Shown here piece after piece: positions 3,001 to 9,000 of a stretch of 35,626 nt of DNA. A program made the position numbers. Positions within the stretch are counted from its first letter, which is position 1. Each line of letters begins with the position of its first letter. The DNA is from a virus (taxonomy: Duplodnaviria; Heunggongvirae; Uroviricota; Caudoviricetes): IMG/VR virus record IMGVR_UViG_2874962485_000008; one strand, 5' to 3'.

Positions 3001-6000
3001 CATTACTTAACGTCAAACGCCCGAATTGAAGCCAAATCATCCAGACTGCTCAGCTCCTCTTTCATCTCCCGCTGACGGCGATAAATCTCATCGTTGCGAT
3101 CGACCTGCGCCTGCACCATTGCTGCCGCCAGTTCTTCCAGTTCCGGCATCGACAGTTTCACCTGCTGATTATCCGCATCACTCCACACCATATGTGTTTG
3201 TGCCGCGACAGATTTTGCCAGCATGACCACCGGGGACAGGCGGGCCACTGACGAGGCGTCAGCGTTCCACGTGCGGCCGTTCCATTCAAACGTGAACGGC
3301 TTCGCCTCCTGTTCTGTGCGCCATGCTTCAATTTCCTGACGTCTGGCCTCTCTGGCCGCTTCCAGCATTTCTGGTGTCACAGTGAATGGGGCTATCTCAC
3401 CCCATTTGCCACTTTGCAGTTCCTGCCAGATTTGCTGACCCGTCGGTGCAACATCATCAGCGGTGGCTGTGTAGGGAACTGCCTGGTCCCTGTCGTCAAA
3501 AAAAACGTCACAGTCTACTGCGCCACTTTCGGTATAACGGGGATTAATGATTTTTTTAATTTCCACGGTGCATTCCTCACGATGTGCGAATAAAAAGCCC
3601 GGGCATTGCGCCAGAGACATGTGCATCCGGCACCCCGGACAGGGCGCAATATGACCCCGGTAATGAATGCTCTGAACATCCCGTAATGAAAAATTGTGGG
3701 GATGCTATATACGTTCCGGTGGGAGTACCGGGCACTGAAATCCCCACCGGTCCCAGTCGTGAGCCTCTGTATGACTGCCCCCTGACAAGTCTGATGACTT
3801 TATCACCGTCAGCTTCTCCCTGGTACGCAGCAATAATCAGCCCGCCAATGTCAGGGTCTCCCCATCTGTTGCGGACAGAGCTCGCCACGATTCTGTAAAT
3901 AATATCTTCTGTGGTTATATTTATTTTCACCCAGTCAGTCTGGATATGGGCCAGTAGCGGTAGCGGGTGTGATAAATGGGGCCGTTAATGCCGTAAAAAG
4001 TAAGGGATTTGGCTCTGTACCGCGGTTCTGTTGTCTCAGGGCGTGCATCAGTCCACCGGATGCTGAGCACCCCTTCAAACCGTGTGTCGGGTATGATGAT
4101 GCCGTAGGGGCCAGCAACGGAATATTCACCTGGCAGCGCATTCCTTACCCAGGCCAGGAAATCACTCTTAGTGTCAAAACGGATAACATCTTCAGGCAGA
4201 AAAGCACACCCAAAGCCGAATGCGCCGGGTATCGCCAGACGGCCTTTTGTCCGGTCGTAAATGTCGCTCTGTGCTTCCATCGTGGCCGCACTTTTCAGCC
4301 CCAGATTATCCCGGGACTTCTGTTGTGCCTTTTCGCCTGCTGCTGCGATTTCTGACAGATGGTTAGCCATTTTCAGAGTGCCGGTCAGCGCAGCATCAAT
4401 GTCATTTTTGGCCTGTTCTGCTGCGCGGGCATAACCTGCGGCATCCTGTGCGCTCTGTCCGGCTGCGGCTGCATTTGCTCCTGTGCTTGTCACATCTTCC
4501 GCAGTGGCCTTTCTGTCCTCAGCTGTGACGGTTGCATCCTGTCGGGCTTTCTCCGCAAAACGTTGTGCATCATCACGGGCCGTTGCGGCTGCCGCCACAT
4601 CCTGCGCCGTCTGCTGTGCGTTTCCGGCTGCAGCCCCGGCACTCTGCTGCGCCTGCGCCACCATTTCCTCAAAGCGCTTCATCACCTCCGGACGTAAATC
4701 ACCATCCTTTGGTGCATTCAGAAACGCGTTCAGTGTCCCCGGTGCATCAGTCGGTGCCACATCAATATCCCCGACACGGGTTGGCTGCCAGCCGTTACAG
4801 TGAAGCGCAACCTCGTAATACCCCGGCTCAGCCTCAATCACATAAGCACCGTTATTGTCCGTCACGCAAGTGGCAACAACGTGTGCCACAACGGTCGGAC
4901 TGGTTCTTCTGGCCCGCAGTTCAATCGCACAATTTACGACAGGTTTACCCGCCCCATCTTTCAGTACACCTGAAATCTTTACTGCCATATTCACCCCACA
5001 AAAAGCCCGCCTGAACCAGCGGGCTGTCATAACACTGTGTTACCTGGCTAATCAGAACTTATAACCGACACCCACGATGAAACCGTCAGTGCGCCAGTCG
5101 CCACTGCCGGAACCTTCATAAGCAAGGTCAATGGCCACGGATTCGGTCGGGTTAAACTGCACGCCAGCCCCCCACGCCAGAGACGTGTTGCTGTGGCGGT
5201 TGTCATCACTCCCGGTCAGCACATCGTGCGTTTTCCCCTTGTTGTCAGTTACGCGGAGATAATCCCCGGAGAAGGTCGACACACGGCTGTAAGCCACGCC
5301 CGCCATCGCATACGCGCTGAACCATTCATTCACGCGCACAGACAGCCCCGCCATCACGCTGAACCAGCGGTTACGCACGGAATCCTCATGCCAGCGGGTA
5401 TCACTGTAATGCGTTTTTTGCTCATCTTCAGCGTTGGCATAGCTGAATGACGTCACCAGCCCCAGCGTGTCCGTAAACTCATAACGGTATTTCACGTTAA
5501 TCCCGTTCAGATCATCACTGCCGGGAGCGTTCGTCGAGGCATGAAGATACCCCGCGCTCAGCGTGGACCGATGTTCAGACGCCCATGCAGGCGCACCGGA
5601 TACAGCCAGACAGATGGCTGCGGACAAAATGGCAGCATAAAGTTTACGCATAATTACCTCTCGCTTTTCTGCAATAAAAAAGGCACCATTTCTGGTGCCC
5701 GTATCTGGGTTATAAAATTCAGCTGATACTGATACCTGCTGTGGATTTCTTCATCACAACAACCAGCAAATCGCTGATACTTGCTGTGGGATACCAGCCA
5801 TTTACCAGCCATGCCGATACAGAAAACTCCAGCGTCATGTGACCGTGACCGGCAGGCATATCAATAACACCCGTATATATCAGCGTATTATCCAGGGTCG
5901 TTCGGTTATAAATTTCAGCACCGTTTTTCTTCACTATCAGGCGGCATGACGAATAAATATTGTTATTCTTCCGCTCATGTTTAGCACCGCGAAACGCCAC

Positions 6001-9000
6001 CGCGGGAATAACAATTTGCCGATCAAACGGCTGATCGTCATAAACCCTGACGGTAATGGTCCCTGATGGCCACCTCTCCGGTGCCCGGGAGTCCCGTGGG
6101 AAAGGTTTGCCCACTGTTTTAACGAGATCGCCTTCAATCTGGTTCGCGGACAATTTTCCCAGAACCCGACAGTTCTTATTAATCGTGACGTTGTTGAGCG
6201 TCCCGGAGTTCGCGTTCACGTTACCGCTGATATCGGCATTTTTCGCCGTCAGCCGTCCGCCAGGTGTCAGGGAAAATGCCGGAGGATTACCGCCGCTGGT
6301 AATGGTCGGAGCCGTCAGGCGTTTCAGGAACACGTCGTTCATGAATATCTGATCGCCCTGACCAACAAACATCGGCTTTGTGTTGCCATTCGCAGGATTA
6401 ATCATCGCAATCCTGTCTGCCGCCAGCAGCACCTGACTCTGCATTCCTGCTGGCGTATTCTCAATACCGGCACCGATACCCGCAATATAAAGGCGTCCGT
6501 CCTTCATCTGTTGCAGCTTCACAGCCCACATGCTGTTCAGGTTATTATTTGTATCAACCTGAACTTTCTGTATCTGCTGGATTGCAGCACTCTGATTTTC
6601 CAGTTTTTTATTGACGGTTTGCGTGATTTCATTGCTGACATTCGTAATGGACGTCCTGATTTCAGTCAGGTCCGGCGCAAGCTGACCGTTATCAATCTGC
6701 GTCCACAACTCCTTGCCGAGATGCGTTTTATTGATCAACCCTTTATAAAAACTCAGATAACCTTCCGCATCATCGCTCGCCCGACCGACGGCCTCCACAA
6801 ATGCCGATTTGCCAACGGTGTTCACACTGCGAACGTAAAAATAATAATCATGGCCCGGCCTGATATTGATACTGGCGGCTATCCAGTACAGCGCCGTGCC
6901 AAGATAGCGGGCGCTGGTTTCAACCTGCCTGATATCCGCAATCCGCTTTTCCGAAAACCAGAACTCAAACTGCACCGTCGGGTCATATACAGCCAGTTTC
7001 GGGACCACCGTTATCTGAAAATACCCCGGTATCAGTTCAATAGTGACAGGCGCTGCCGGTGCCGCAATCCGGAACGATACCGACGCCGGATCGCCCTGCT
7101 GCCCCCGGGCATTTACCGCCCGGACTGTCAGACTGTAATTCCCCAGCGCCAGCTGCCTGAAGCGGTATGTGGTTTCCGTCGTCCTGGCTGTGCTGACCAG
7201 CCGCTCACTGCCGTCGTCCGCTGCCACGGTCAGGCGAAGCAGGAAGCTCACACCCTTCACCACCTTCGGCGTGTCCCATCGCGCCAGCACCTGATATTCC
7301 CCGCTGTCTGCGGTGACTTCGGCGGTCAGATGCTGCACCGCTGGCGGCGTGACACCATTCACCGTGCCGCGCCGGTCACCGTCAAAGTGTGCCCCGTTAT
7401 CCACGATGGCCTCTTTTTCCGGCACATGCTGCACGGCGGTGATGGCATACGTGCCGTCGTCGTTCTCACGGATACTCACGCAGCGGAACAGGCGCTGGCG
7501 CAGCGTCGGCAGCTTCAGCCCCCACACGCTGTATTCTGCAACGCCGTCAGGAACCCGGCTCACTTTCACCTTCACGCCGTCGGTGACGGACTGAACCTCC
7601 ACGCTGACCGGATTGCCATTTCCGTCAACCAGGCTTATCAGCGTGGTACCGGAGGACGGCAGCGTGATTTCACGGTCGAGCGTCAGCGTCCGGGTCTGGC
7701 TGTTCACCGCCAGTACGCGACCACCGGTGCTGATACCGGCATAATCATCATCGCAGATTTCAATGACATCACCCGGTACATGGCGAAGCCCTTCTGCGCC
7801 GACGCTGAAGTCCACGGTCTGCGTTTCCAGCAGTTCCGTTTTAATCAGCCACAGCCCGGCGCGGTGCGCCTGTCCCCGGCTGGTACAGCCAAAGGCATCC
7901 ATCTTCGTGACGTTACGACCGTAACGGACAATGGCCTGCGTGTCCTCCACAAGCTCTGTCGCCGTCTCATGACCGTTGTCCGGATCAATCCAGTTCACCT
8001 CAACGACATTATGGCGGTCCTTCAGGGCGCTGAAGCTGTAGCGGAACGGCGCGCCATCATCCGGCATCACCACATTACTGCGGTTATAGGTCCACACTTT
8101 ATCCGACGGTCGGTCCTGCACGAACGTCAGCGTCTGCCCGTTCCATACCGGCATACAGCGCATCGCCGAGCAGAAATCACTGAGAACATCCCACGCCTTA
8201 CGCTGTGTGGTCAGGTAAGCGTTACAGGTGATGCGCGGCTCCGTGCCGCCAAATCCGTCCGGCACTGACTGGTCGCAGTACTGGCCGATGACATACAGCG
8301 CCCATTTGTCCACATCTGCCGCACCAAGACGTTTCCCCATGCCGTAGCGCGGATGAGTGAGCATGTCCCACAGACACCAGGCCATGTTGTTGCTGTATGC
8401 TGGCTTAAGCGTTCCGTCCCAGATACCGCTGTATTGCCGCGTCTGCGGGTTATAGTTCGACGGCACCTGCAGAATGCGCCCGCGAAGATGATAATTGCGA
8501 CTCACCTGCTGGTTACCGAACTGCTCTGAATCCACCTGCACGCCGACCAGCGCCGTGTTCGGGTAGCACTGTTTCACATCGATGATTTCGGTGTACGACG
8601 ACCAGAGCGTTTTGTTCTGCAGCTGGTCTGTGGTGCTGTCCGGTGTCATCCTGCGCATCCGGATATTAAACGGGCGCGGCGGCAGGTTACCCACCACCAC
8701 CGAGGCCAGATACTGCGAAGTGGTTTTGCCCTTAATGGTGATGTCTTTTTCCGTCACCCAGCCACCGTTACGCTGTATCTGAACCAGCAGGCGGACTTCC
8801 GACGGATTCCGGTCCCCCTTTGAGGTGGTTTCCACCAGTGCCTGCACACCGAAGGTCAGGCGCAGACGATCAATGTTTGCCGACGTGATGGTCCGGGTGA
8901 TCGGCGTGTCGTATTTCACTTCCGTACCCAGCACAGTCTCTGAGCCGGAAGATTCAAACCCCTCCGGCGGTGTCTGCTCCTGCTCGCCGGCGCGGAACAC

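Follow-up and report, generated by a model that had tools for sequence, protein, structure and literature searches.

A mosaic J gene in a defective Shigella flexneri prophage carries a receptor-binding domain that probably recognised OmpC

The window analyzed here, a stretch of 35,626 nucleotides, is the IMG/VR virus record IMGVR_UViG_2874962485_000008 (Caudoviricetes). At the center of this study is its J gene, encoding the tail-tip, central tail fibre and host-specificity protein of lambdoid phages. J lies on the minus strand (5719..9198) as an intact open reading frame (ORF) of 3480 nt encoding 1159 amino acids (aa), compared to 1132 aa for lambda J (NC_001416, 15505-18903). We observed Pfam matches in the lambda order, all above the curated cut-offs: FNIII-A_GpJ (aa 86-207), Phage-tail_3 (330-498), Ig_J (611-714), Ig_J_second (716-817), Phage_Tail_Tip (872-1000) and Ig_GpJ_C (1030-1159). 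The gene order H-M-L-K-I-J-lom-stf was also that of lambda, as read from the ORFs of the window, Pfam searches on the neighbours, and gene calls in identical Shigella loci. Public databases list an identical 1159-aa protein under the name “host specificity protein J [Shigella]” (Q81ZS6_SHIFL), indexed in thousands of assemblies. The window J is the lambda-type tail-tip protein of a lambdoid Shigella flexneri prophage that is defective, and its gene is a mosaic. The data below establish this mosaic structure, the homology of the domains, the class to which the C-terminus belongs, and the defective state of the prophage, in which J itself is intact.

We performed a global protein alignment of the window J with lambda J, scored it by segment, and profiled nucleotide identity separately. 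Residues 1-815 were 96% identical to lambda J (780/815); the original prediction had extended this near-identity to ~950 residues. Identity was 48% in residues 816-940 (47/97), which also contain 28 residues without a lambda counterpart. An internal divergent segment had been predicted and is indeed present, although at ~125 residues with a 28-residue insertion it is larger than the ~50 residues proposed. Residues 941-1005 were again 89% identical (58/65), followed by 41% identity in residues 1006-1159 (63/154), where the lone gap was a single residue. Nucleotide identity to lambda was 81-100% for aa 1-810, fell to 18-60% across aa 811-930, rose to 79-88% across aa 931-990 and fell again to 51-64% across aa 991-1140. 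The coordinates predicted for a divergent C-terminal block, 5719-6230 (aa 990-1159), were right, and 77 of its 170 residues matched lambda (45%). High identity to lambda J residues 980-1132 was absent from the alignment. At 41% amino acid identity, the window J's receptor-binding domain (RBD) is not closely similar to lambda J aa 978-1132, which represent the LamB-binding class. The C-terminus of the window J has diverged from that of lambda yet is clearly homologous to it.

The two divergent blocks also differed in composition. Their G+C was 0.467 (6379-6753) and 0.482 (5719-6183), versus 0.589 and 0.564 in the conserved blocks. This ~10-point lower G+C in both modules that differ from lambda is consistent with a separate history of exchanged modules.

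The internal divergent block (aa 816-940; 6379..6753, minus strand) covers the alpha-helical shaft and the upper beta-prism. The domain names follow the cryo-electron microscopy study of the lambda tail with LamB by Ge and Wang 2024, in which the two FNIII domains of gpJ are followed by an alpha-helical shaft, then a beta-sheet prism and finally a receptor-binding domain of immunoglobulin-like (Ig-like) fold, from which four bottom loops reach into the porin (PMC11101478). The block was 90% identical to phage 21 and to PhiR55_1, whose allele it represents. In pairwise and multiple alignments, the 28 residues (21 + 7) lacking in lambda and h434 J mapped within aa 836-866 (6601..6693, minus strand). 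The short shaft allele is found in lambda and the 434 host-range J, and the long one in the window, phage 21 and PhiR55_1. In an AlphaFold2 (AF2) model of the monomer (aa 801-1159; mean predicted local distance difference test score (pLDDT) 56.8), a single 48-residue helix spanned aa 842-889 with the 28 extra residues inside it; the beta-prism had a pLDDT <50 and is unreliable. Scoring the heptad register across aa 815-890 did not single out one clean register; read by eye, L844, I847, I851, V854 and I858 are spaced 3-4-3-4. The internal block is probably an alpha-helical shaft four heptads longer than that of lambda. If helical, the 28 extra residues would add roughly 4 nm to the shaft.

Between the two divergent blocks lies a conserved junction (aa 941-1005; 6184..6378, minus strand), the lower beta-prism of the central fibre, where 89% of residues are identical in lambda, 92% in phage 21 and 95% in PhiR55_1. 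Among 44 J homologues, invariant columns were found from ~aa 973 to 1010. The fusion point that Brödel et al. chose, lambda J residue 964, is equivalent to window aa 992 and falls within this junction. The junction is an identity island where homologous recombination exchanges receptor-binding modules. Modular exchange of the J receptor-binding domain is a known feature of lambdoid phages.

The receptor-binding domain itself (aa 1006-1159 plus the stop codon; 5719..6183, minus strand) is Ig-like and belongs to the 1A2 / PhiR55_1 / VT1-Sakai class, based on Pfam, the AF2 model and sequence identities. The RBD shared 41% of its residues with lambda, 69% with phage 21 and 92% with PhiR55_1. AF2 predicted a confident beta-sandwich at aa 1026-1158 (pLDDT 67-94). 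A sequence search of the PDB with the window J returned 9wca as the best match (“A8 gpJ 713”, E = 5e-125), followed by the lambda gpJ entries 8xcj, 8xck and 8iyk. The top Foldseek matches were 9wca, 8xck, 8xcj and 9wcb, with low whole-chain template modelling (TM) scores. Entry 9wcb shows A8 gpJ in complex with the E. coli EDL933 OmpC, and 8xcj is lambda J with LamB.

We grouped J C-termini into classes from searches of a phage collection. Those ~91-93% identical to the window came from PhiR55_1, PhiR47_1, vB_EcoS-640R1, VT1-Sakai, PPompW prophages, many Shiga toxin (Stx) 2a phages, and 2G7b. Phage 21 (LamB) and phi330 (OmpC) formed a class at ~66-70%, and lambda (LamB) and 434 (OmpC) one at ~41-45% over the last 155 aa. 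The window RBD class includes plaque-forming phages (PhiR55_1, PhiR47_1 and vB_EcoS-640R1), and many prophages of E. coli O157 and of the Stx type carry it. It is very common, with single 90%-identity clusters holding thousands of members; of 5426 complete E. coli genomes, 4984 had a match to the J-lom region. We found no published receptor for the phages of the ~91-93% class, such as PhiR55_1 and VT1-Sakai: the SNIPE paper holds no receptor data for the PhiR phages, and a literature search on the receptors of long-tailed Stx phages returned nothing specific. Overall, this type of J module is common, annotated and experimentally characterised, and its occurrence here is an ordinary and already known finding.

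The prophage carries a frameshifted portal gene, a nu1 truncated beside an insertion sequence (IS) element, and a frameshifted stf, and its divergent C-terminus could accordingly be read as decay, a non-functional remnant drifting in a dead prophage. We consider this very improbable. The 1159-aa ORF is intact, the fold is predicted with confidence, and the RBD is 92% identical to that of plaque-forming phages; the divergence from lambda is shared by the whole class, with its thousands of members. Because Ig_GpJ_C (PF12421) was matched end to end (profile positions 2-135 of 135, E = 6e-37), the data argue for a module swap and not for decay.

The receptor of this module can be approached through tested relatives. 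Brödel et al. (Nature 2024, PMC11338833) built chimeras of lambda gpJ with natural gpJ C-termini, placing the fusion at residue 964. We obtained the sequences of the 1A2 and A8 chimeras from the supplementary DNA of that study, a machine-read PDF with base drop-outs and frameshifting optical character recognition (OCR) errors. Direct DNA alignment of 1A2 with the window was useless for residue calls (70% nucleotide identity, OCR indels). Residues of 1A2 were called by three-frame translation and exact 5-mer coverage of natural alleles. In the E. coli allele P0006/P0007, 155 of 168 residues were covered by the 1A2 tail, every diagnostic residue among them, and the gaps coincided with OCR frameshifts. 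This allele was identical to the window at 154 of 168 residues (92%, 14 differences). The A8 chimera belongs to the phi330 class.

The chimeras had been assayed in lamB ompC double-deletion strains with plasmid-borne ompC alleles (PMC11338833). With the EDL933 ompC allele in K-12, 98.7% of cells were positive for green fluorescent protein (GFP) after 1A2 delivery. In wild-type MG1655, a strain with LamB and the K-12 OmpC, 1A2 reached ~5% GFP-positive cells versus 98% for lambda. A8, 1A2 or both were effective on 21 of 23 natural ompC alleles; 1A2, picked as a variant using another receptor, tolerated many of them, and K-12 OmpC was accepted by A8 and not by 1A2 (PMC11338833). A later study used 1A2 to target O157 strains via OmpC. 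The phi330 paper showed an OmpC requirement by knockout and complementation.

Because the ~92%-identical 1A2 delivers via EDL933 OmpC and not into wild-type K-12, OmpC is the likely receptor of the window J. The evidence for OmpC dependence and for the lack of delivery into LamB-bearing K-12 comes from the literature on this 92%-identical module, not from the window allele. Taken together, these data suggest that the receptor of the window J was probably OmpC and not LamB. The window J would most likely favour certain OmpC alleles. A receptor other than LamB had been proposed from the divergence of the C-terminus; the proposal gains support here, although through the tested relative 1A2 and not through that divergence. 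Its past tense, “targeted”, also fits, the prophage being defective.

The argument from divergence fails on phage 21. We rejected the treatment of phage 21 as an OmpC phage: LamB is its native receptor, and OmpC use is evolved (PMC11336670). One J mutation adds OmpC use and further ones add OmpF, and single substitutions change porin use in both phage 21 and lambda (PMC11336670). The phage 21 RBD was 49% identical to that of lambda over the last 155 aa, and phage 21 nonetheless uses LamB; divergence alone is therefore no proof of a receptor change. The window RBD might likewise still use LamB, its divergence being another solution to the same receptor or an adaptation to Shigella LamB. Phage 21, 49% identical to lambda and 69% to the window, is the precedent for such a module, and Shigella LamB is a competent lambda receptor. 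We nevertheless regard continued LamB use as quite unlikely: the closer relative 1A2 performed poorly against lambda in LamB-bearing MG1655 and had been selected for using a different receptor.

We also assessed the predicted contact loops of the RBD. In the class alignment, variation was concentrated at aa 1036-1042, 1070, 1075-1081, 1118-1121 and 1131-1135. Three of these variable sites align with loops discussed at the OmpC interface in the AlphaFold3 model of the phi330 paper. The first predicted receptor contact, loop aa 1036-1043 (DSRAPERW; 6070..6093, minus strand), is a variability hot spot between model strands 1026-1031 and 1046-1054. It aligns with phi330 T918-Y921, a loop that the phi330 paper describes as shorter than its phage 434 counterpart. 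Loop aa 1075-1081 (ERKNNNI; 5956..5976, minus strand), the most variable of the class, aligns with the phi330 hairpin E953-S962, which is predicted to point into the OmpC barrel (phi330 paper, AlphaFold3). Loop aa 1131-1137 (LVNGWYP; 5788..5808, minus strand), another predicted receptor contact and variability hot spot, aligns with phi330 A1015-P1020, predicted in the same model to touch the OmpC rim.

The contact loops of the window and 1A2 were not identical overall; only loop 1036-1043 was the same in both. In loop 1075-1081 the window has ERKNNNI and 1A2 has EKEHTDI, with five consecutive differences at 1076-1080 (RKNNN versus KEHTD). At position 1134 the class varies among G, D, N and K; the window has G and 1A2 has N. 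None of the other class members examined had N1080 or P1032. These loops would be the reason for the receptor to be another trimeric porin or outer-membrane protein, such as OmpF, and in the J family few mutations are needed to shift porin choice. We consider a different porin unlikely, given that the RBD as a whole is 92% identical to that of 1A2, that 1A2 is tolerant of OmpC variation, and that both of the nearest tested natural classes bind OmpC (1A2, and A8/phi330 at 66%). A more speculative idea, to which we give a small chance, is that the private residues (RKNNN at 1076-1080, N1080 and P1032) could confer an undescribed specificity, either for a Shigella-type OmpC or for another porin, and that the intact J might act as a recombination reservoir. 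If so, incoming lambdoid phages would gain a Shigella-adapted tip via the junction at aa 941-1005.

OmpC thus remains the probable receptor, and a working order of events can be proposed. Residues 1-815, comprising lambda-like hub domains and two FNIII domains, build the tail tip with gpI, gpK, gpL and gpM. The two downstream modules are other alleles: a longer shaft (the phage 21 allele) and an Ig-like receptor-binding domain. By analogy with the solved lambda-LamB and A8-OmpC complexes, the bottom loops of the three fibre-tip domains would enter the trimeric porin at its mouth. As the domains spread, the beta-prism would be twisted and the helical shaft flipped, and the tail tip would open. 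We infer the binding of OmpC by the window allele, the OmpC alleles it would accept, and this triggering mechanism from the relatives described above.

Several observations weigh against OmpC. The five consecutive loop residues and G1134 differ from 1A2, and few substitutions suffice to shift porin use. Phage 21, with a 69% identical RBD, natively uses LamB. The 1A2 sequence was read from OCR-damaged text, and ~13 of the 168 residues had to be deduced. AF2 modelled a monomer, with a mean pLDDT of 56.8 and an unreliable beta-prism, and the mapping of loops to the interface rests on the AlphaFold3 model of another group.

Domains of the window RBD class have been cloned and tested before, and engineered delivery particles already make use of them. 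As a natural variant of 1A2 whose loops differ where specificity is set, the Shigella allele is a candidate for lambda-based vector design aimed at Shigella or at E. coli with other OmpC alleles. The pair of phage 21 (LamB) and phi330 (OmpC), with RBDs 81% identical, is a caution against reading the receptor from sequence distance.

The genes around J are arranged as in lambda. Directly downstream is lom, for an Ail/Lom outer-membrane protein (5052..5651, minus strand; Pfam Ail_Lom, E = 4e-124), followed by the side tail fibre gene stf (3577..5030, minus strand; Pfam phage_tail_N). A DUF4376 gene is also found downstream of J. stf is frameshifted: a tblastn search with the intact 470-aa Stf of FDAARGOS_943 matched at 99%, and the frame changed from -3 to -2 at 3933-3939. 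On the other side of J are I (9259-9900), K (9798-10541), L (10546-11244) and M (11244-11573), all on the minus strand and identified from their ORFs and from Pfam hits on called genes of the identical Shigella loci.

Beyond M lies H, for the tape measure protein (11573-14644, minus strand), which has 1023 aa and tape measure domains; lambda H has 853 aa. The protein was 86.5% identical to that of PhiR55_1. The SNIPE study lists PhiR55_1 among the phages met by a modest, ManYZ-independent defence. Since the tape measure protein is near that of PhiR55_1, the inner-membrane entry route of the window phage may also differ from that of lambda.

The defects of the prophage lie outside J. The lambda-family portal gene (20881-22474, minus strand) is split between two frames, with lambda B residues 7-338 in frame -1 and residues 329-522 in frame -2, and the switch lies near 21,450-21,500. 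With its portal gene in two frames, head assembly should fail. A remnant of a Nu1-like small terminase, comprising the C-terminal half (residues 86-180; 24566-24850), adjoins an IS3-family transposase with rve domains (24908-25726; likely orfA at 25762-26064). Phage replication genes are represented by a DnaB-like gene (29699-31090) and a DnaC/IstB-like gene (31087-32064), and near them is a group II intron reverse transcriptase/maturase ORF with RVT_1 and GIIM domains (32563-34086, minus strand).

The left end of the window points to the integration site. The 15-bp lambda attachment core, GCTTTTTTATACTAA, has an exact match at 568-582 on the minus strand, where none is expected by chance. It is placed between the prophage and a 158-aa PEBP-family ORF (1-477) that looks like ybhB. 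Because this exact core stands beside a ybhB-like ORF, the element appears to sit at lambda attB, with the core as the bio-side junction. A 587-aa IpaH-type type III effector with LRR_TTSS and NEL E3 ubiquitin ligase domains is encoded at 1060-2823 (plus strand), in the interval that separates the attachment site from the tail fibre genes. This ipaH-type gene is cargo, and the low G+C at 450-1800 fits a foreign insert.

Among complete “E. coli” genomes, the one that best matched the J-lom region was a strain with IS600 and ipaH. The identical 1159-aa J was also found at two separate loci (L009 and L010) of the S. flexneri chromosome CP034931.1. Both loci have lom, the DUF4376 gene and an ipaH-type gene downstream of J. 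Identical J proteins with like downstream genes indicate two sibling ipaH prophages.

Compared to named systems, the window J has its nearest tested relative in 1A2, sharing its receptor-binding domain class at ~92% over the last 168 aa, and the 1A2 fusion junction equals window aa 992. 1A2 differs by its 14 substitutions and was tested on a lambda body with a short shaft, whereas the window shaft is long. PhiR55_1 J (PV340571) also has 1159 aa, with 93% nucleotide identity over the whole gene, the long shaft, and the same RBD class at 92%. The J proteins of PhiR55_1, VT1-Sakai, the PPompW prophages, Stx2a_WGPS2 and 2G7b come from active or inducible phages, and their loops differ from those of the window. 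Lambda gpJ (P03749; PDB 8IYK, 8XCK and 8XCJ) shares the family, architecture, gene neighbourhood and Ig-like fold, with 96% identity over aa 1-815, but its RBD is 41% identical, its shaft is 28 residues shorter, and it binds LamB. Phage 21 J (OL657228) shares the long shaft allele (90% over aa 816-940), and its nucleotide identity is ~90% or more up to ~aa 1020; it differs in an RBD that is 69% identical to that of the window and in its native use of LamB. The phi330 J and A8 gpJ (PV189401; PDB 9WCA and 9WCB) have a homologous OmpC-binding RBD, that of phi330 being 66% identical to the window, but their class is nearer to phage 21 (81%) and has a longer second loop.

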